A DNA stretch of 64,000 nucleotides from a bacterium (GCA_043824255.1 JBDRTG010000043.1:47644-111643), one strand, 5' to 3'; positions 39,374 through 50,038 are shown, counted from the stretch's first letter. Notes: generated by a model from the sequence alone, not told the origin. Translations and numbers: made by a program.

Positions 39374-40624
39374 ATGATCGAAACAAATCTGTTTAAAATT
39401 ACACAGAACCAATTAGATGAAGCTGTTGAGAAGTTGGGTCTCAATAAGGCTGCTCACGAGCTTCTTCGGTGGCCTCAACGGGAATTCACGTTCACTCTTC
39501 CAGTAAAGATGGATGATGGAACTACCAAGATCTTTCATGGATTCAGAATTCAATATAATTCAGCTCTTGGTCCCACAAAGGGAGGAGTGCGCTGGCATCC
39601 TGAAGAAACTATAGATACTGTGCGCGCTCTAGCTGCGTGGATGACATGGAAGTGTGCTCTTGTAAACATCCCTCTTGGAGGGGGTAAAGGCGGTATAATT
39701 TGCAATCCTAAGATAATGTCCGAAAGGGAAAAAGAATATCTTGCAAGGGCTTATATCAGAGCTATTGCTTCTCACATTGGCGTCCACAAAGATGTACCTG
39801 CTCCTGATGTTTACACAACACCGCAGATTATGGCTTGGATGATGGATGAGTACGAGGCTATAGTGGGGGAATCTCATCCAGGGATGATCACAGGCAAACC
39901 GCTGTCATTGGGAGGCAGTGAAGGACGTGGAGATGCAACAGCTCGTGGAGGAGTCTTTACTGTAAGAGAGGCATGCAAAGCTTGTGGTATTAGCTCCAAA
40001 GGCACCTTTGCAGTTCAGGGCTTTGGAAACGCAGGACAATTCGCAGCACTGCTTCATCCGGAAATACTAGAAGAAGGAAAACTTATTGCAGTATCTGACT
40101 CAAAGGGAGGAATATATAAGGAATCCGGAATTAATCCTAGAGATATAGTAGACCATAAATTAAAAACAGGAAGTGTAGCCGATTTCCCCGGAACAAGTTC
40201 TATCAGCAATAAAGAGATTATTGAGCTTGATGTTGATGTTTTCTATCCAGCAGCTATGGAGAACGTTATTACTGAGAAAAACGCGCAAAATATCAAAGCC
40301 AGAATAATCTGTGAGCTTGCAAACGGACCTACAACTCCTGAAGCAGACGCAATACTTTATGCAAAAGGCGTTCACATTATACCGGATTTTCTTGCCAATG
40401 CCGGAGGAGTAACTGTCAGCTATTTTGAACAGGTTCAAAATACATATAACTATTACTGGACATTGGATGATGTGCATAAACAGCTGGATGCCAAAATGAC
40501 CACTGCTTACCACTCAGTATATAAAATGCATAAGGAAAAGAATGTTCATATGCGTTTAGCTGCATATATGATTGCCGTTTCCCGCGTTGCCGAGGCTGTA
40601 AAACTTAGAGGCTGGATATCGTAA
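39374..40624 (+). CDS. gdhA: Glu/Leu/Phe/Val dehydrogenase (glutamate dehydrogenase)
   Basis: '[11 protein letters not shown]', 'MTWKCA...PLGGGKGG', 'DVPAPDV', 'GRGDATARG', 'QGFGNAG', 'ELANGP', '[16 protein letters not shown]'. Confidence 0.93.
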
Positions 40625-40649: not shown

Positions 40650-40679
40650 TTGTCAACTATATTTGTACTATGATATAAT
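40650..40679 (+). promoter_or_regulatory. Sigma70 promoter of the carB-purF-DUF1846-purL-hisF operon
   Basis: TTGTCA-18 nt-TATAAT with extended TG (TGATATAAT). Confidence 0.7.
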
Positions 40680-40807
40680 TCCGTCCCATGAGATTCTCAA
40701 TGGGATTTTCGATCGCCTTTTCAGTATGGTCTGTTCAGCGATGTCTGTTCTCTAGTAATATCATGTTTATAATGCCTAACATATCAAAGCGCTAAGGAGA
40801 TTATTTT

Positions 40808-43800
40808 ATGCCAAAAAGGACTGATATCCATAAGATTTTAATTATAGGTTCCGGCCCCATAATTATAGGTCAGGCATGTGAGTTTGACTATTCAGGCACT
40901 CAAGCATGTAAAGCACTTAAGGAAGAAGGGTATGAAGTGGTACTTGTAAACTCTAATCCTGCTACTATTATGACAGACCCTGACACAGCTGATAAAACAT
41001 ACATAGAACCGCTTACTGTGGAAAGTCTTGAAGAAATTATCAAGAAGGAAAAGCCTGATGCGCTTCTTCCCAACCTAGGAGGGCAGACAGGACTTAATCT
41101 TGCATCCAGTCTTTACAGCTCAGGAGTATTGAAAAGATATGGAGTTGAACTCATTGGCGTTAAAGCAGACGCTATTGAGCGAGGAGAAGACAGGATTGCA
41201 TTCAAGAAGACAATGAATAAATTGGGCATATCTCTTCCTAGATCTGAGCCATGTTATTCTGTTGAGGAAGCTGAAAATATAGCAGAGAAACTTGGATATC
41301 CTGTCGTATTGCGGCCTGCTTATACATTAGGCGGAACAGGAGGAGGAATTGCATACAATGTAGAAGAGCTGAAAACTATTGTCAGCAGAGGTCTTGCAGT
41401 AAGTCTCGTACATCAGGTTCTGGTTGAAGAATCTGTTTTGGGATGGGAGGAATTAGAGCTTGAGGTTGTAAGGGACCAGAAAAATCAGAAGATTACAGTC
41501 TGTTTTATTGAAAATATTGATGCTATGGGCATACACACAGGAGATAGCTTCTGCTCCGCACCTATGCTCACGGTCCCACAAGCTTTGCAAAAGCGTATGC
41601 AGGAGATTTCTTATAAGATTGTTGATGCTATTGGCGTTATAGGCGGTACAAATGTTCAGCTTGCGCATAATCCTAAGGATGACAGGCTGGTGGTAATAGA
41701 GATCAATCCACGAACGTCGCGCTCATCTGCTCTTGCCTCTAAAGCAACTGGATTTCCAATAGCCCGTATCTCTACAAAGCTTGCTGTTGGTATTACAATG
41801 GACGAGATTCCATATTGGAAGAAAGGAACCCTTGAGAAATATGAACCCAGTGGAGAGTATGTAGTAATTAAATTTGCGCGCTGGGCTTTTGAAAAGTTTC
41901 CAGGAGCAAAGGATATACTTGGAACACAAATGAAGGCCGTAGGCGAAGTAATGAGCATAGGAAAGACATATAAAGAATCCTTTCAAAAAGCCATCCGCTC
42001 TCTTGAGATAAACAGATGTGGTCTTGGCGGAGCTAAGAACTTTAAAACACTTTCCCTTGAAAGATTGAAAGAGAAATTAGCAACCCCCTCCAGCGAACGT
42101 ATTTTTCTGATGTATGAGGCGCTGCGCAAGGGTATGAGTGTAGAAGAACTTTACCAGATGACCTATATTGGACGCTGGTTTATTAAAGAGATGAAGGAAC
42201 TTGTAGATTTTGAGGAAGAATTAATCAAAAACATATGGAAAAATCTTCCTGAGAGAAAATTGGCAAAAGCAAAAGAGTGGGGGTTTTCAGATAAATATCT
42301 GGCAGGCCTTTTTGAAGTAAAAGAAAAAGAGGTCAGACAAAAGAGAATCGCCATAGGCAAATGCGGCTGTTTTGAGGCTGTCCCCGTAAGCGGAGTAGAG
42401 AATGCTGCTTATTATTATTCCACTTACAACGGTAAAGATTCAGTTCCTGTATCATCAAAAAAGAAGATAATGATTTTAGGCGGCGGACCTAATAGAATTG
42501 GGCAGGGTATTGAATTTGATTATACGTGTGTACACGCAGCTTTTGCTTTGCGGGATGAAGGATATGAGTCAATTATGGTTAACTGCAATCCTGAAACCGT
42601 ATCTACTGATTATGACACTTCAAACAAGCTTTATTTTGAACCTTTAACAGTTGAAGATGTACTCACAATTTACGAAAAGGAGAAGCCGGAAGGTGTTATT
42701 GTTCAGTTTGGCGGACAGACTCCTCTGAATATTGCTCAGGAATTAAAGAATAACGGTGTGAAAATTCTTGGGACAACGCCTGAAAGCATACATCTTGCAG
42801 AGGATAGAGAGCGTTTTAGAGAAAAAATGATTGCTCTTAATATCCTACAGCCGGAGAGCGGCATAGCGCGTTCATTAGACGAAGCTCTTATAACCGCTAA
42901 TAAGATAGGATATCCTCTTATGGTACGCCCATCTTATGTGTTAGGAGGGCGTGGAATGCAAATTATTTATGATGAAGCTATGCTGCGGGATTATGCCATT
43001 GAAGCTATTCAGGTCAGTCCGGAACATCCAATGCTTATTGATAGATTTCTTGAGCAGGCTGTAGAGGCAGAAGTTGATGCTATTTCCGATGGAGAAAATA
43101 CATTTGTAGCAGCTGTTATGGAACATATAGAATTAGCAGGTGTTCATTCGGGAGATTCTGCATGCGCCATCCCATCAAGAACTATTAAAAAAGAGCACTT
43201 AAATACAATAGAGAAATATACATCAGCAATTGCAAAGGAATTAAATGTCGTAGGTTTAATGAATATTCAATATGCAATATGTGATAATAAGGTTTATATA
43301 CTGGAGGCTAATCCAAGAGCTTCGCGTACAGTTCCAGTAGTCTCTAAAGTAACAGGCATAGCAATAGCCCATATAGCAACTCAAATAATGCTGGGTAAGA
43401 AGATAAGAGATTTTCCTGAACTAAAACCTCGCAAGCTTCCTTATGTAGCCGTTAAAGAAGCTGTTTTCCCGTTTAATATGTTTCCGGAAGTAGATCCTTT
43501 ACTAGGTCCGGAGATGAGAGCTACAGGAGAGGTTATGGGAATTGGCGATACATTCGGACTTGCTTTTTATAAGGCATCAGAAGCAGCCGGTTCAAAGCTT
43601 CCGCTTAAAGGTAATATGCTTTTGACAATAGCTGATAAAGATAAACCTTTTTTGATTCCCATTGCTCAGCGGATTAAGAAACTTGGTTTTAATATTTATG
43701 CTACAAAAGGCACAGCTAAATTTTTAAAAGAGAATAGCATACAGAATACAGAAATAAAAAAATTACATGAAGGAAGGCCAAATATAACTGACGCAGTCAA

Positions 43801-44029
43801 AAACAAAGAGATCAATCTTATTATCAATACACCTGTTGGACGCAGCGGGAAGCATGATGACAGTTATATTCGCAGAACTGCAATACAGCACAGGATTCCC
43901 TATATTACTTCGATAACGGCTGCAGAAGCCAGTATTGAAGGGATTGAATCTGTGACTAAAACCAGAAGTTTACCAAGGTCACTTCAGGATTATCTCAAGA
44001 AACTTATTAAAGTTAGAGAACAAGAATAA
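40808..44029 (+). CDS. carB: Carbamoyl-phosphate synthase large subunit
   Basis: 'IIGSGPIIIGQACEFDYSG', two ATP-grasp domains ('GIHTGDS', 'GVHSGDS', 'EINPR', 'EANPRASRTVP'), C-terminal MGS-like domain. Confidence 0.98.
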   Translation: MPKRTDIHKILIIGSGPIIIGQACEFDYSGTQACKALKEEGYEVVLVNSNPATIMTDPDTADKTYIEPLTVESLEEIIKKEKPDALLPNLGGQTGLNLASSLYSSGVLKRYGVELIGVKADAIERGEDRIAFKKTMNKLGISLPRSEPCYSVEEAENIAEKLGYPVVLRPAYTLGGTGGGIAYNVEELKTIVSRGLAVSLVHQVLVEESVLGWEELELEVVRDQKNQKITVCFIENIDAMGIHTGDSFCSAPMLTVPQALQKRMQEISYKIVDAIGVIGGTNVQLAHNPKDDRLVVIEINPRTSRSSALASKATGFPIARISTKLAVGITMDEIPYWKKGTLEKYEPSGEYVVIKFARWAFEKFPGAKDILGTQMKAVGEVMSIGKTYKESFQKAIRSLEINRCGLGGAKNFKTLSLERLKEKLATPSSERIFLMYEALRKGMSVEELYQMTYIGRWFIKEMKELVDFEEELIKNIWKNLPERKLAKAKEWGFSDKYLAGLFEVKEKEVRQKRIAIGKCGCFEAVPVSGVENAAYYYSTYNGKDSVPVSSKKKIMILGGGPNRIGQGIEFDYTCVHAAFALRDEGYESIMVNCNPETVSTDYDTSNKLYFEPLTVEDVLTIYEKEKPEGVIVQFGGQTPLNIAQELKNNGVKILGTTPESIHLAEDRERFREKMIALNILQPESGIARSLDEALITANKIGYPLMVRPSYVLGGRGMQIIYDEAMLRDYAIEAIQVSPEHPMLIDRFLEQAVEAEVDAISDGENTFVAAVMEHIELAGVHSGDSACAIPSRTIKKEHLNTIEKYTSAIAKELNVVGLMNIQYAICDNKVYILEANPRASRTVPVVSKVTGIAIAHIATQIMLGKKIRDFPELKPRKLPYVAVKEAVFPFNMFPEVDPLLGPEMRATGEVMGIGDTFGLAFYKASEAAGSKLPLKGNMLLTIADKDKPFLIPIAQRIKKLGFNIYATKGTAKFLKENSIQNTEIKKLHEGRPNITDAVKNKEINLIINTPVGRSGKHDDSYIRRTAIQHRIPYITSITAAEASIEGIESVTKTRSLPRSLQDYLKKLIKVREQE

Positions 44030-44047
44030 ATAAAAGGAGCACATAAA

Positions 44048-45439
44048 ATGGATGGGATATTTGGAGTTGCCTTAAAAGAGGATTGTCAGGAGGTTTTATT
44101 TTACGGAACAGATTATCATTCTCATTTAGGAACAGAATATGGAGGGCTGGCAGTATTAGGAAAAAGATTGGTTAGAAAGATTCACGCAATTAGCGGAGGA
44201 CAGTTTAAAAGCAGATTTTATGAAGATTATAAGAAAATGAAAGGGAAATCCGGCATTGGGGTGATATCTACAAGAGAAGAACAGCCTATATATCTAAATT
44301 CAAAATTTGGCCACTTCTGTATTGTTAGTAATGGTTTAATCACTAATTCGGATGGTTTGACTAAGGATTTGCGCAGGCAGGGAATTTCATTTAGTGAAAC
44401 AGCTAAAAAAGGAGTAAACAGTACAGAACTAGTTGCAAAATTAGTAAACCAGGGCAGGAGTTTAGTGCATGGAATAGAAAATTACTTTAAAAGAATTAAG
44501 GGCTCCTGTTCTATCCTAATCTTACATAAGGACGGTATCTATATTGCAAGGGATAAACTAGGATATTCTCCTTTAATTATAGGTAAATCAAAGGAAGGCT
44601 GGGCAGTAACTACAGAAACTTCTGCTTTTTTTAACTTAGGGTTTAGTATAGAAAGATATGTTAAGCCGGGTGAAATACTGCTTTTAAAGCCCACTGGATT
44701 TAAGGTTCTCAAAGAAGAGGAGCCGCATCAAAAGACAGATACGTTTTTATGGATCTATACTGGTTTTCCTGCATCAAATTATGAGGGTATAAATACAGAA
44801 GAAGTAAGAGAGCGTTGCGGAAAATTTTTGGCAAAAAGGGACAACGTTGAAGCAGATTTGGTAGCAGGAGTTCCGGACTCAGGAACTACGCATGCTATTG
44901 GTTATTCCATTGAATCAAGAATACCTTTTAGGCGTCCTCTGGTTAAATATAATCCCGGCTATGGCAGAAGCTACATTCCGCCGTCTCAAAGCATAAGAGA
45001 CCATATTGCTAAAATGAAGCTGATTCCAATTAAAGAGATAATTAAAGGGAACAGGATCATTTTATGTGAAGATTCAATTGTAAGGGGTACTCAGCTTAAA
45101 AACTATACTATCCAGAAGTTGTGGGAAAGCGGGGCAAAGGAAATTCATGTCAGGGTTGCGTGCCCGCCTTTATTGTTTCCTTCTAAATTCGATTATTCTA
45201 CCAAGAAGAAAGAAGAACTGGTTGCCAGACGTACAATAAAAGCTTTAGAAGGCAAGGATATTAAAGATATGAGCGAATACATTGATTCCAATTCAAAAAA
45301 ACACAAAAAAATGGTAGATTGTATTGCAAAAGAATTGGACGTTACCAGCTTAAAATACCAAACCCTTGAAGACATGGTAAAAGCAATAGGATTGCCCGAA
45401 GAAAAACTTTGTCTTTATGTATGGACTGGGAAGGTTTAA
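44048..45439 (+). CDS. purF: Amidophosphoribosyltransferase-like protein lacking the N-terminal catalytic Cys
   Basis: Ntn fold starting 'MDGIFG' (not MCG); 'GVPDSG'; PRPP motif '[11 protein letters not shown]'; 'RVACPP'. Confidence 0.85.
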
Positions 45440-46956
45440 TGATTAAAAAAATAGGTTTTGATAATGAGAAGTATCTAAAGGAGCAGACTAAGGCTATTCT
45501 TGAGAGAGTTGAGAGGTCTGATAATAAATTGTATCTTGAGTTTGGCGGAAAGCTTGTCTTTGACTTTCATGCTTCAAGGGTTCTCCCAGGCTTTGACCCC
45601 AATGTGAAGATACGGCTCTTGCAGCAATTAAAGGATAAGGCAGATATATTGCTCTGTATTTATGCCGGTGATATTGAAAGAAAAAAAGTAAGAGCAGACT
45701 TCGGAATTACATACGATGCTGCGGTACTCAAATCAATTGATGATTTAAAGGATTGGGGTATTGATATACTGGCAGTTGTAATAACACGTTTTGAAGATCA
45801 GCCGGCAACTATAATATTTAAGAACAAATTAGAGCGCAGAAACATAAAGGTTTATACCCATACATTTACAAAGGGATATCCCACGGATGTAAATTTAATT
45901 GTAAGTGATAAAGGTTATGGGGCAAACGCGTATATTAAGACTAAAAAACCTCTTGTCATAGTTACCGGGCCAGGCCCCGGCAGTGGGAAATTAGCAACGT
46001 GTCTTTCTCAATTGTATCATGATTATAAGAGAGGGATGAAAAATGGATATGCAAAATTTGAAACATTTCCTATATGGAATCTACCGCTTAAACATCCGGT
46101 GAATGCGGCTTATGAAGCAGCAACAGCAGATTTAAGGGATTTTAATATGATAGATTCCTTTCATCTTGAAGCATACAACAAGGTAGCTGTGAACTATAAC
46201 AGGGATGTAGAGGTGTTTCCTGTGCTTAAGAGAATATTAGAGAAGATAACCGGATCTGAGTCAATATATAAGTCACCTACGGATATGGGTGTAAACAGAG
46301 CTGGTTTTGGAATTATAGATGACGAAATAGTAAAACACGCTGCAGAGCAGGAAGTAGTAAGAAGATATTTTAGATGTGCCTGCGAATATGTAATGGGTCT
46401 TGTGGATAAGGAAACTGTGCAAAGGGTGGAGCTCATTATGGAGGATCTTAATCTTAAGCCGGAGGATAGGCTGGTGGTTGTGCCAGCACGAAAGGCTATT
46501 GAAGATGCTCAACAAAGAGGAGAGGGTAATGAAGGAGTCTTTTGCGGTGCGGCAATAGAATTAAAAGACGGCTTAATCATTACAGGGAAAAACTCCTCTC
46601 TTATGCATGCAACATCAAGTCTTATTCTGAATGCTGTAAAAGAGCTGGCGGAAATTCCCGATAAGATACATCTTCTGTCTCCGAACATAATAGATTCCAT
46701 AGGTAATCTTAAAAAGAATATTTTAAATACGAAAGCAGTGAGCCTGAATCTGGAAGAAACCTTAATTGCCCTTTCTATAAGCGCAACTACGAACCCAACC
46801 TCTCAGCTGGCTATGGAGAAGCTAGGGGAACTTAAGGGCTGCGAAATACATATGACACATATTCCAACCCCTGGTGATGAAGCAGGGTTAAGAAAATTGG
46901 GGGTTAATACTACCAGCGACCCCGATTTTTCCACAAAGACGCTTTTTGTTGAATAA
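45439..46956 (+). CDS. DUF1846 (UPF0371) domain protein
   Basis: '[10 protein letters not shown]...I.ER', '[21 protein letters not shown]', P-loop '[19 protein letters not shown]', 'YAKFETFP', 'SPTDMGVN'. ATG overlaps the purF stop (TAATG). Confidence 0.92.
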
Positions 46957-47006
46957 AGTAATTTTTTTAGAATAGGAATAAAAATTTAAAAAAAGGAGGG
47001 CGCATA

Positions 47007-49247
47007 ATGGAGAGTGCAGTTAAAGTTGATGTGGAAGTAGCAAAGGATTTAGGGCTTACTGAGCAGGAGTTTGAACAGATCAAAAAACTTTTAGGCAGAG
47101 AGCCGAATTTTACAGAATTAGGGGTTTTTTCAGCTATGTGGAGCGAACATTGCAGTTACAAGAATTCACGCAAGTTGTTCAAACTTTTCCCAACTAAAGG
47201 TAAACAGGTGTTAATTGGTGCAGGTGAGGAAAATACCGGAATTGTTGATATAGGCGACGGATTGGGCGTTGCCTTCAAGATAGAATCGCATAACCATCCT
47301 TCGGCAGTGGAACCATTCGAGGCATCTGCTACAGGTATAGGCGGATGTTTGAGGGACATATTTACAGTAGGAGCAAGACCTGTTGCAGTGTTAGGTGCAT
47401 TGAGATTCGGAAGTTTGGATAATGAAAAAGTTAAATTCTTATTTAAAGAGGTAATCAGGGGACTGGCTCATTATGCTAATACTGCAGAGGTTAGTGCTGT
47501 TGGTGGTGACAGCTATTTTGACGAAAGTTATGAAGGTAATCCTTTGGTTAATGCTTTTGCTGTAGGTATTGTAAAACATAAAGATATTGCAAGAGGCGCT
47601 GCGTCTGGAATAGGGAATCTCATATATTACATAGGAGGAGACACAGGCAGAGACGGGGTAGGTGGAGCGAGTTTTGCATCCCAGGAAATTACTGAGGAAT
47701 CTGCCTCTGATACGAGCAGTGTTGCTATAGGTAACGCAGAGCTTGGGAAACGCTTGAGAGAGGTGTGTCTGGAACTAATAGAAAAAGGCCTCATTGTTGG
47801 AATGCAGGATATGGGAGCGGCAGGGCTTACCTGCTCATCCTGCGAAACAGCCTCAAGAAGCAGGACTGGTATTGAGATAGATGTTGCCTTAGTTCCTCAA
47901 AGAGAAAAAGGAATGACCCCTTATGAAATCCTTTTGTCTGAATCTCAGGAAAGAATGCTTGCTATATTAAAAGACGGAAAGGAAAAAGAGGCATTAGATA
48001 TATTGAAAAAATGGAACATCAACGCAGTAAAAATCGGGAAGGTTACAGATGATAGAATGATGAGGGTTAAAGAAAACGGAATAGTGGTTTGCGAAATTCC
48101 GCCACAGGCTCTTACAGAAAGAGCGCCTTTGTATGATAGAGATGCTAAAGAGCCTTCTTACTTAAAAGATGCTCAAAATCTGGATAGAAAATCCATAATC
48201 GAACCTGACGATTTTAATAAAGTGTTGTTGCAACTGCTTGATTCTCCGACTATTGCAAGCAAAGAATCAGCATATAAAAACTTTACTGCTATAGACAAGG
48301 ATGAAGTTATAGTAGGAGCAGGTTCAGATGCAGCTGTAGTTAAAATTAAGGGCACTAAAAAGGCTTTAGCAATAAGTGTGGATTGCAACGGGAGATATTG
48401 CTATCTAAATCCTTATAATGGTGCGATGATGGCTGTTGCAGAAGCAGCGAGAAATATAGTCTGTTCTGGTGGAAGACCTCTTGCTATCACCGACGGCTTG
48501 AATTTCGGTAGCCCGATGAAGCCTGAAAATTACTGGCAATTTAAAAAATGTATAGAAGGACTTTCCTCCGCGTGCAGAGCTTTAGACACACCTGTTGTAA
48601 GTGGTAATGTAAGTTTCTATAATGAGAATCCTAAAGGAGCGATAGATCCGACCCCCATGGTAGGTATGGTAGGATTGATAGACGATGCAAACAAGCATAT
48701 TACCCAGGAATTCAAGAATGAGGGCGATGTAATAGTTCTTTTAGGTGAAAACAAGGCCGACCTTTCGGGAAGTGAATATTTATATCTGATTCACAACCAG
48801 AAAAAAGGCAACCCTCAGATAGATATACAAATAGAGAAGTCCGTTCAGAAAGCATGCCTTGAGGCAATTGAAGCAGGTATTATTAATTCCGCTCATGATT
48901 GTTCGGAAGGTGGACTGGCTGTAACTTTGACTGAATCATGCATCTCAAATTTAAACAAAATGCTTGGTGCTGTAATAGAATTGGATGGCTTAAAAAACAA
49001 TGATATAAGAATGGATGAAATTTTATTTGGAGAAGCGCCTTCCAGAATAGTGGTTTCTCTAAATAAGGATAAAATGGAGCTTCTTGAAAAAATAGCTCAG
49101 AAACATTCTATTGCATACACTATTCTTGGAGAGGTCAGTGGAGAAAATCTGGCAATCAAAGACAATCAGGAAAACATAGTAGATATTTCTGTTAAAGTAT
49201 TAAGCAATACATGGAGGAACGCAATTCCTTCAAGATTAGAAAAATAA
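47007..49247 (+). CDS. purL: Phosphoribosylformylglycinamidine synthase subunit PurL (small type)
   Basis: 'MWSEHCSYK', 'FKIESHNHPS..EP', 'QDMGAAGL', 'LLSESQERM', 'GNVSFYNE', 'SAHDCSEGGL'. Confidence 0.96.
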   Translation: MESAVKVDVEVAKDLGLTEQEFEQIKKLLGREPNFTELGVFSAMWSEHCSYKNSRKLFKLFPTKGKQVLIGAGEENTGIVDIGDGLGVAFKIESHNHPSAVEPFEASATGIGGCLRDIFTVGARPVAVLGALRFGSLDNEKVKFLFKEVIRGLAHYANTAEVSAVGGDSYFDESYEGNPLVNAFAVGIVKHKDIARGAASGIGNLIYYIGGDTGRDGVGGASFASQEITEESASDTSSVAIGNAELGKRLREVCLELIEKGLIVGMQDMGAAGLTCSSCETASRSRTGIEIDVALVPQREKGMTPYEILLSESQERMLAILKDGKEKEALDILKKWNINAVKIGKVTDDRMMRVKENGIVVCEIPPQALTERAPLYDRDAKEPSYLKDAQNLDRKSIIEPDDFNKVLLQLLDSPTIASKESAYKNFTAIDKDEVIVGAGSDAAVVKIKGTKKALAISVDCNGRYCYLNPYNGAMMAVAEAARNIVCSGGRPLAITDGLNFGSPMKPENYWQFKKCIEGLSSACRALDTPVVSGNVSFYNENPKGAIDPTPMVGMVGLIDDANKHITQEFKNEGDVIVLLGENKADLSGSEYLYLIHNQKKGNPQIDIQIEKSVQKACLEAIEAGIINSAHDCSEGGLAVTLTESCISNLNKMLGAVIELDGLKNNDIRMDEILFGEAPSRIVVSLNKDKMELLEKIAQKHSIAYTILGEVSGENLAIKDNQENIVDISVKVLSNTWRNAIPSRLEK

Positions 49248-49267
49248 AAAGAAAGGGTGATATAACA

Positions 49268-50038
49268 ATGCAACAAGTAAAAGTAATCCCATGTCTGGAT
49301 ATAAAAGACGGACGAGTAGTTAAAGGCGTAAAGTTTGTTGAATTAAAAGATGCACGTGATCCTGTAGAAGCAGCAACTGCTTATTGTGACGCAGGTGCGG
49401 ATGAACTTGTTTTTTTAGATATAGCCGCTTCTGTTGAAACAAGAGCCACACGCATGGATTGGGTAAAGAAGGTAAAAGAGGTAACAACCGTGCCCTTTTG
49501 TGTTGGTGGGGGCATAAGGAATTTAGACGATATGCAAACTCTTTTTGATATAGGAGTAAACAAAGTCTCTATTAATACATCTGCTGTTAAAAATCCCTCT
49601 TTAATCAAAGATGCTGTTGAAAAATTTGGCAAAGAAAGAATTGTTGTTGCTATTGACGGGAAGAAAAATCCACCTGAGGGTAGCCGTCCGAGATTAGAGC
49701 TCCTGATTATGGGGGGAGTGGAGTCGACTGGTCTGGATGTGGTTGAATGGGCAAAAAAGGTGGAACAGTTAGGCGCAGGAGAAATTCTCCTGACCAGCAA
49801 GGATGTGGATGGTACAAAAGAAGGGTATGATATTGAGATGACCAAGGCAGTAGCAGAAGCCGTCTCAATTCCTGTTACCGCCTCAGGCGGGGCGGGGAAA
49901 TTAGAGGACCTTTATGAAGTCATAATCCAGGCTAAAGCAGCCAATGTCCTATGCGCTTCAGTATTTCATTTTGGAGAGCTCACAATCCAAGAAGTAAAAA
50001 AATATCTAAAGGGAAGAGGTATAGCGGTCAGGGCATAA
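49268..50038 (+). CDS. hisF: Imidazole glycerol phosphate synthase cyclase subunit HisF
   Basis: 'IPCLDIKDGRVVKG' (Asp11), 'DELVFLDI', 'VGGGIR', 'VAIDG' (Asp130), 'GEILLTS', 'ASGGAG'. Start moved to ATG 49268. Confidence 0.93.
   Translation: MQQVKVIPCLDIKDGRVVKGVKFVELKDARDPVEAATAYCDAGADELVFLDIAASVETRATRMDWVKKVKEVTTVPFCVGGGIRNLDDMQTLFDIGVNKVSINTSAVKNPSLIKDAVEKFGKERIVVAIDGKKNPPEGSRPRLELLIMGGVESTGLDVVEWAKKVEQLGAGEILLTSKDVDGTKEGYDIEMTKAVAEAVSIPVTASGGAGKLEDLYEVIIQAKAANVLCASVFHFGELTIQEVKKYLKGRGIAVRA

Follow-up and report, generated by a model that had tools for sequence, protein, structure and literature searches.

A carB-purF*-pyrJ-purL-hisF operon without glutaminase genes, a candidate for nitrogen transfer from free ammonia

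Ammonia channelling has its standard example in the glutamine amidotransferases, and cells are generally assumed not to depend on free ammonia at these steps. A 64,000-nucleotide stretch of a bacterial genome (GCA_043824255.1, JBDRTG010000043.1:47644-111643; referred to as the window) raises the question of what donates the nitrogen when the synthases of several such enzymes are encoded together and their glutaminases are not, as it carries an operon of carB, purF, a DUF1846 gene, purL, and hisF. The first-pass annotation of the window proposed that this operon is organised by nitrogen-donor chemistry and forms a glutamine bypass, and the proposal is supported by a mirror locus on another contig of the same genome, by the chemistry of the DUF1846 protein PyrJ, and by relatives that lack the glutaminases. 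We consider it probable that this is a high-ammonium nitrogen-transfer operon, in which synthase-only enzymes are fed by free NH3, and purine, pyrimidine, arginine, and histidine synthesis in these bacteria most likely draws on free ammonia directly. The enzymes themselves belong to known families; what is new is the conserved five-gene glutaminase-less operon, its mirror glutamine locus, and the species that have the ammonia set alone. A literature search on ammonia-type amidotransferase operons, PurQ-less PurL, and Omnitrophota amidotransferases yielded no earlier account of such a system.

Two paralogous gene sets and their enzymes

The window represents contig C43 of a 2.02-Mb genome (G000) that is in 51 contigs and is 87% complete. 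Open reading frames (ORFs) were listed in all six frames, and families were assigned with two profile libraries (Pfam, and models with curated cut-offs). The operon consists of gdh, a promoter candidate, carB, a Cys-less purF (purF*), the DUF1846 gene (pyrJ), purL, and hisF, all on the plus strand. The ORF coordinates and family profiles uphold the earlier description of the last five genes as co-oriented, with gaps of 18, -1, 50, and 20 nt in carB-to-hisF order when the likely starts 45439 and 49268 are used. The earlier gene list was correct for these five genes but omitted the upstream glutamate dehydrogenase (GDH) gene, gdh (39374-40624; PF00208 and PF02812; NF040817, 598 bits), which ends 183 nt upstream of carB. 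GDH is an ATP-free, low-affinity way of assimilating ammonia, and the gdh-carB adjacency is kept in the related genomes G004, G001, and G006, in the metagenome locus L087, and in an Omnitrophota locus (L139). The single promoter proposed ahead of the operon has a counterpart in a sigma-70-type candidate for carB-purF*-pyrJ-purL-hisF that lies between gdh and carB (40650-40679, plus strand; TTGTCA-18-TATAAT with an extended -10 TG); as a consensus match only, it agrees at 11 of 12 positions and is the top site of the 12.5 kb scanned. Neither gdh nor carB is preceded by an Rfam match at E up to 1, the ~130-nt leader included, and this leader folds no more stably than shuffled sequence (z = -0.41). 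We note that a short hairpin, GUCCCAUGAGAUUCUCAAUGGGAU, followed by UUUU lies just after the promoter candidate (40683-40712) and is a possible attenuator. The reported lack of carA, purQ, purS, and hisH near the operon was confirmed, as tblastn with G000's own copies found none of the four on the window's contig. Pairwise ratios of nonsynonymous to synonymous substitution (dN/dS) for gdh, carB, purF*, pyrJ, purL, and hisF, comparing G000 with G004, G007, G001, or G006, are 0.04 to 0.15, and all six genes are therefore under purifying selection, also in a genome that holds the glutamine set too.

That glutamine set is a ~25-kb, tightly packed locus of roughly 20 genes on contig C29 (~21151-46154; L123 and L001). 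Its first part has, in order, a gene for a GAF-domain sigma-54 activator, glnA (type I glutamine synthetase [GS]), nadE, a split archaeal-type glutamate synthase (GOGAT), carA, murI, and carB, and its second part canonical purF, pyrG, guaA, purS, purQ, purL, hisH, hisF, and glmS. A sigma-54-type motif, TGGCATACTATTTGCT, is found 43 nt before glnA and after the activator gene, also as a consensus match only. The block gathers most of the cell's glutamine- and glutamate-using enzymes. G000 is thus a genome of two paralogous sets, one with every glutaminase, by GS and GOGAT, and the other without any, by GDH; we use the suffix _A for copies of the C29 locus and _B for the window-type glutaminase-less copies. 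Examination of the full genome bore out the proposal in that glnA, carA, purS, purQ, and hisH are present together with a second carB, purF, purL, and hisF, on C29. Rather than single-copy genes that pair with glutaminases encoded elsewhere, in a cluster not conserved in other genomes, we found a second set, and an operon that is conserved in G004 and G007. A mixed bin was rejected as the source of the paralogues: 136 of the 1686 G000 ORFs have a paralogue of at least 45% identity, these are scattered over contigs, and GC content is uniform.

The purF* gene (44048-45439) encodes a Cys-less, PurF-like phosphoribosyl pyrophosphate (PRPP) aminotransferase. It scores 210.9 bits on TIGR01134, under the equivalog cut-off of 350; the canonical PurF of G000, which is 33% identical to it and starts MCGIFG, scores 526.6 bits. 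As first annotated, Asp stands in place of Cys1 (PurF* starts MDGIFGV). Alignment with Bacillus subtilis PurF (1AO0) and the G000 PurF further shows a change of Arg26 to Leu and of Asp127 to Ser and a deletion of the Arg73/Tyr74 loop, so that the Cys nucleophile and the glutamine-binding residues Arg73 and Asp127 expected of a PurF are all missing. The phosphoribosyltransferase (PRTase) motifs DSG and EDSIVRGT are retained, and the PRPP site is intact. Among the 120 closest homologues, position 1 is Ser in 115, Asp in 4, Gly in 2, and never Cys. PurF* has the features of a Cys-less PurF' family, namely Ser, Asp, or Gly at position 1, GTDYHSHLG (invariant in a 17-sequence PurF* alignment), and the PRTase motif C[ED]DSIVRGT. 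When one genome per species was scanned, at least 598 confirmed PurF* loci emerged, which among the matches listed come from Omnitrophota, Planctomycetota, Desulfobacterota, Bacteroidales, Hadarchaeota, Asgard archaea, and others; canonical purF, pyrJ, window-type CarB, and guaA are frequent neighbours.

Brown, Hoopes, White, and Sarisky proposed in 2011 that archaeal Cys-less PurF' is an ammonia-dependent PRPP aminotransferase (PMC3261824), and according to work cited there, Escherichia coli PurF with Cys1 replaced retains NH3-dependent activity. The archaeal protein resembles PurF* in being a PurF homologue without the N-terminal Cys, but it was regarded as an unexplained duplicate, whereas PurF* is linked to CarB, PyrJ, PurL, and HisF and is the sole PurF in purM-bearing genomes (G001, G004, G007, and G008 have no other PurF homologue). 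The subgroup in this genus also differs in lacking three of the four iron-sulfur (Fe-S) cysteines found in most family members (family consensus ICxFLWIY, FPCKF, and LCLYCW; this genus reads LCLYVW).

PyrJ (DUF1846/UPF0371; 45439-46956; PF08903, 565 bits; PF20921, 192 bits) scores 783 bits on NF010184 (cut-off, 631), and its alignment with PDB 7F00 (UPF0371 protein SPRM200_0309) covers residues 2 to 501 of 505 (E = 2e-160). Purified Streptococcus pneumoniae Spd_0310/PyrJ converts uridine triphosphate (UTP) to cytidine triphosphate (CTP) with ammonia and not with glutamine; depletion of Spd_0310 in a pyrG deletion causes a strong growth defect, so that the two are likely a synthetic-lethal pair, and cytidine rescues the Spd_0310/pyrG growth defect (bioRxiv 10.1101/2024.09.24.614635). 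By its likeness to this homologue, in which the chemistry was shown, the window protein is predicted to be an ammonia-dependent CTP synthase. In the window, pyrJ follows purF*, the slot that pyrG holds in the C29 locus, and the homologue's chemistry together with this position argues that DUF1846 is one more enzyme of the set. The S. pneumoniae protein is of the same family over its full length and is an ammonia-only stand-in for PyrG; it is a lone back-up beside PyrG there, whereas here it is in an operon with four glutaminase-less enzymes and would be the sole CTP synthase in the sister species.

Two of the remaining proteins are synthases that ordinarily work with separate glutaminase subunits. 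CarB_B, a carbamoyl-phosphate synthase large subunit (40808-44029; NF003671, 1540 bits; cut-off, 599), has two ATP-grasp halves and an MGS-like domain in Pfam, is 54% identical by tblastn to the carA-linked CarB_A on C29, and has dN/dS values of 0.06 to 0.08. PurL_B, a small-type phosphoribosylformylglycinamidine (FGAM) synthetase (47007-49247; TIGR01736, 849 bits; cut-off, 526), is 50% identical to PurL_A, which is linked to purS and purQ, and has dN/dS values of 0.05 to 0.11. In vitro, both CarB and the small type of PurL accept ammonia when isolated. No gene for a CarA, PurS, or PurQ partner is present in the window, and the one carA of G000 lies beside carB_A.

HisF_B, the cyclase subunit that belongs to imidazole glycerol phosphate (IGP) synthase (49268-50038; TIGR00735, 320 bits; cut-off, 294.5), is 56% identical to the C29 HisF and in alignment retains both catalytic residues, Asp11 and Asp130, as well as the phosphate-binding motifs; its score on the WbuZ model (246 bits) is below the WbuZ cut-off. 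Relative to canonical HisF, Arg5 is changed to Lys, Asp98 to Asn, and Gln123 to Glu, such that GVNKVS replaces the GADKVS of solved HisF structures. We take Asp98 and Gln123 of Thermotoga maritima HisF to be coupling residues that contact HisH, and HisF_B has Asn98 and Glu123 and no HisH partner beside it. The first-pass annotation had read Asn98 as a loss of glutaminase coupling; the residue is as reported, but it is weak evidence of such a loss, since it is confined to this genus and G041, an Omnitrophota genome lacking hisH, keeps Asp. For the same reason Asn98 was rejected as a signature of a HisH-less HisF clade, Asn being present in 13 and Asp in 103 of the 120 closest homologues. A hisH deletion mutant of Corynebacterium glutamicum is prototrophic (Kulis-Horn et al., PMC3896937), and HisF can therefore use ammonia in vivo. 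C. glutamicum thus offers a likeness, in that its HisF makes IGP from ammonia unaided in the living cell, although it still encodes a functional HisH, a gene that is gone in the hisH-less genomes described here. CarB_B, PurL_B, and HisF_B belong to the same synthase families as CarAB, PurLSQ, and HisHF of E. coli, B. subtilis, and T. maritima, with equivalog cut-offs passed and catalytic residues kept, but no glutaminase subunit is encoded in the operon, nor in the genomes of three sister species; in model organisms, the ammonia reaction of these enzymes is a weak side activity (PMC3896937).

Occurrence without the glutamine set

In the GTDB set used, the phylum of G000 is a single genus of nine species, and we compared G000 with the eight other species of the genus by searches with concatenated queries. 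G004 and G007 (96% and 95% complete, respectively) carry (gdh-)carB_B-purF*-pyrJ-purL_B-hisF_B in the window order, with 91 to 99% amino acid identity, and G001 (95%) has the same genes split over several contigs. None of carA, purS, purQ, hisH, canonical purF, and pyrG was found in these three genomes, and they have no second carB, purL, or hisF. Their class-I glutaminase matches are only the GuaA domain and a 193-aa protein that corresponds to trpG in G000. They do keep pyrB and a second transcarbamoylase, purM, and hisB-hisA. With paralogues absent and the remaining pathway genes present, CarB_B, PurF*, PyrJ, PurL_B, and HisF_B are the sole enzymes for their steps in these three species.

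Other members of the genus combine the two sets. G000 has both in full. In G008 (90% complete) and the metagenome loci L087 and L088, gdh-carB_B-purF*-pyrJ is joined to purS-purQ-purL_A-hisH-hisF_A, and G006 (91%) has guaA-purL_B-hisF_B, purF_A-pyrG-gdh-carB_B-purF*, and pyrJ-purS-purQ-purL_A-hisH-hisF_A. A further locus, L084, reads purF*-carA-carB.

Because the genes missing from G001, G004, and G007 lie in one locus of G000, a lost contig could mimic their absence. The guaA and glmS genes of G004 and G007 bear on this point, as they are 93 to 96% identical to the G000 copies inside the C29 locus and yet lie at other sites. The guaA gene stands between orthologues of G000 C16_2865-3503 and C16_3506-4450, and glmS between orthologues of C44_6760-7848 and a second gdh; in G000, the flanking pairs of these sites abut each other on C16 and C44. 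These are clean single-gene differences with conserved neighbours (G004 C73 and C127; G007 C21 and C92; loci L140 to L143), and such well-assembled syntenic sites indicate that the glutamine locus is truly differently built or absent, and not a binning gap.

We also surveyed the Omnitrophota, the phylum of G041, covering 71 species at least 90% complete with six candidates scored per genome, for which reason absences were re-tested with a shorter query. The amidotransferase genes of G000 are nearest to Omnitrophota versions, despite the separate phylum. G041 (CP070655.1), a 1.14-Mb single-record chromosome, has a purL-hisF pair whose HisF is 84% identical, and no purS, purQ, hisH, or carA. PurL of the PurL_B type (71 to 78% identity) is present in 6 of the 71 species, the next-best PurL being at most 56% identical, and purS and purQ are absent in all six. 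In the re-test, none of the four glutaminase genes (purS, purQ, hisH, and carA) was found in G051 or G105, and G055, G075, G100, G049, and G069 lack purS, purQ, and carA and keep hisH. Like the three sister species, G041, G051, and G105 have the glutaminase-less versions only and retain the other genes of the pathways. Taking both lineages together, the whole genomes without carA are those of G001, G004, G007, G008, G041, G051, and G105; without purS and purQ, those of G001, G004, G007, G041, G051, G105, G055, G075, and G100; and without hisH, those of G001, G004, G007, G041, G051, and G105. A purL-hisF pair without hisH is also found at loci L138 and L139.

Free ammonia weighed against its alternatives

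In the working that we propose, each enzyme of the operon would carry out its normal reaction with free NH3 entering the acceptor site directly, in place of the NH3 that CarA, the N-terminal nucleophile (Ntn) domain of PurF, the glutamine amidotransferase (GATase) domain of PyrG, PurQ/PurS, and HisH would usually release from glutamine and deliver via a tunnel. CarB would make carbamoyl phosphate, Cys-less PurF phosphoribosylamine, PyrJ CTP, PurL FGAM, and HisF IGP; for CarB_B, PurF*, PurL_B, and HisF_B, ammonia dependence is a prediction from sequence. G000 can probably switch between a glutamine route (GS-GOGAT and the amidotransferases), suited to scarce ammonium, and a direct route (GDH and the operon), which would spare the cell the ATP cost of GS for each amide nitrogen. 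GDH accompanies the sigma-70 operon, and the glutamine set is accompanied by the sigma-54 activator, GS, and GOGAT, an arrangement that would correspond to high- and low-ammonium regimes. Two nitrogen-entry routes, chosen by ammonium supply and ATP cost, are familiar from GDH versus GS-GOGAT, AsnA/AsnB, and short and long NadE. Unlike the choice between GDH and GS-GOGAT, the duality here covers five downstream amide-transfer steps in two gene clusters, one headed by gdh and the other by the sigma-54 activator, glnA, and GOGAT.

Several observations weigh against this account. Every genome from the window's own genus is a draft metagenome-assembled genome (MAG). The hybrid arrangements of L087, G008, G006, and L084 indicate no strict sorting of cassettes by nitrogen donor, and the glutamine locus is itself not purely of the glutamine type, its NadE (244 aa) being of the short, ammonia type. 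Genomes with the ammonia set only still keep the glutamine-dependent GuaA, GlmS, and TrpG, and the glutamine synthetase GS-III, so that the bypass would be partial. G000 has a second hisH at the end of contig C22 that could serve HisF_B, and Asn98 of HisF_B, being genus-specific, is best read as relaxed constraint and is weak evidence of lost coupling. HisF alone of E. coli and Salmonella needs unphysiologically high ammonia and a pH above 8, and hisH mutants are auxotrophic (PMC3896937); given this weak activity of model HisF, the B enzymes would have to use ammonia more effectively or work in a cytoplasm very rich in ammonium.

What else could supply the nitrogen? Glutamine or some other amide might still be the source, by way of a glutaminase that is unrecognised or non-cognate, such as TrpG, the GATase domain of GuaA, or a remodelled PurF* N-domain whose invariant DYHSHLGT motif acts on another donor. 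GS-III, TrpG, GuaA, and GlmS are kept in all genomes, G000 has the spare hisH on C22, and the PurF* N-domain is strongly conserved and not decaying (~150 invariant positions, including GTDYHSHLG). We regard such a donor as unlikely, however, as the 193-aa GATase sits within trpE-trpG-trpD in G000, which identifies it as trpG and led us to reject it as a shared glutaminase; position 1 of PurF* varies among Ser, Asp, and Gly, leaving no conserved nucleophile; the single-record G041 gives one weak GATase cross-match only; and HisH-HisF coupling demands closely matched partners (PMC3896937). The first-pass annotation had also suggested DUF1846 as a shared ammonia source, which would feed the four neighbouring synthases from its position in mid-operon. 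This suggestion does not survive the finding that the S. pneumoniae orthologue is an ammonia-only CTP synthase that backs up PyrG genetically, nor the presence of pyrJ in the pyrG slot of the paralogous locus, and the glutaminase-less purL-hisF pairs at L138 and L139 have no DUF1846 within 10 kb; we give it hardly any weight.

It is highly improbable that the window genes, as diverged paralogues, serve other functions, for example with HisF_B a WbuZ-type sugar-amidation cyclase or CarB_B and PurL_B acting in secondary metabolism, so that the cluster would lie outside primary metabolism. The full canonical set already in G000 would be compatible with this, as would the WbuZ score of HisF_B and the sub-cut-off score of the PurF-like protein, but HisF_B is over the HisF equivalog cut-off and under that of WbuZ with its catalytic residues kept, a member of the PyrJ family is a proven CTP synthase, and the genes are sole copies in G001, G004, and G007, where purM, hisA/hisB, and pyrB exist. 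Equally remote is the explanation that the absence of glutaminases in the relatives is an artefact of incomplete MAGs, with one locus lost at once by the binner. That six genes share one 25-kb locus in G000, and that the genomes of the genus are all drafts, makes it worth considering; against it, three independent species at 95 to 96% completeness show the same pattern, G001, G004, and G007 are also without second copies of carB, purL, and hisF, the guaA and glmS genes of G004 and G007 lie at different syntenic positions with conserved flanks, and a single-record 1.14-Mb chromosome shows the same absence.

Returning to free ammonia as the donor, its wider form joins three elements, and we offer it tentatively, at somewhat less than even odds: whole lineages without cognate glutaminases, dedicated NH3 enzymes, and swappable cassettes. 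The lineages would be this genus (its own GTDB phylum) and several Omnitrophota species; CarB, PurF*, PyrJ, PurL, and HisF would be dedicated to free ammonia and not crippled amidotransferases; and the cassettes would be mixed by species, each with carB, purF, and a CTP synthase as its head and purL and hisF as its tail, with G000 expressing the glutamine cassette from a sigma-54 promoter and the ammonia cassette from a sigma-70 promoter. If this is true, the choice between GDH and GS-GOGAT reaches every downstream amide transfer, and these would be the first natural PurL and HisF to have given up ammonia channelling.

The textbook view is challenged by natural genomes that have dropped CarA, PurQ/PurS, HisH, the PurF nucleophile, and PyrG together and kept the pathways. 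Should the enzymes prove ammonia-dependent, a very large mislabelled PurF-like family (at least 598 loci) would gain a function, the genomic context of PyrJ would be explained, PurL_B and HisF_B would be the first stand-alone PurL and HisF adapted to ammonia, and metabolic reconstructions that score such organisms as auxotrophic or glutamine-dependent would need correcting. Since its species variously have the glutamine or the ammonia set, both sets, or hybrids, the genus allows what channelling costs and gains to be studied directly.

Further amidotransferase copies

Additional copies of these genes are found elsewhere in G000. On C22 (L003 108-3037, minus strand), a remnant of the PurF* C terminus (40 to 45 aa) comes first, and after it stand another full-length guaA (71% identical), an ORF of 119 aa, and the second hisH (63% identical), which ends at the contig edge; RadC and DUF1016 genes are alongside. 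This cluster looks like a decayed third cassette, and its hisH is a possible partner of HisF_B. A third carB on C51 (L002 7098-10289, minus strand) is 71% identical to the window copy and starts near the contig end, and 3' of it are genes for a purB-like lyase (318.8 bits; cut-off, 326.2), a tyrosine-type invertase, and a Tn3-family transposase, a neighbourhood suggesting that amidotransferase genes may travel on mobile DNA. Contig C26 (15293-16261; L122 5294-6262) encodes a 322-aa protein consisting of the ATP-pyrophosphatase half of GuaA only (TIGR00884, 306 bits; cut-off, 339), and in the related locus L084 (9052-9990) such a gene stands between pyrJ and purF*; the protein is a candidate ammonia-dependent GMP synthetase.

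A 94%-identical relative has three genes inserted between carB and purF* (L087 8198-9947; L088 2554-4303). Their products are two proteins of 144 and 67 aa and a DUF1016/YhcG nuclease-like protein, to which the DUF1016 gene on C22 of G000 is 74% identical.

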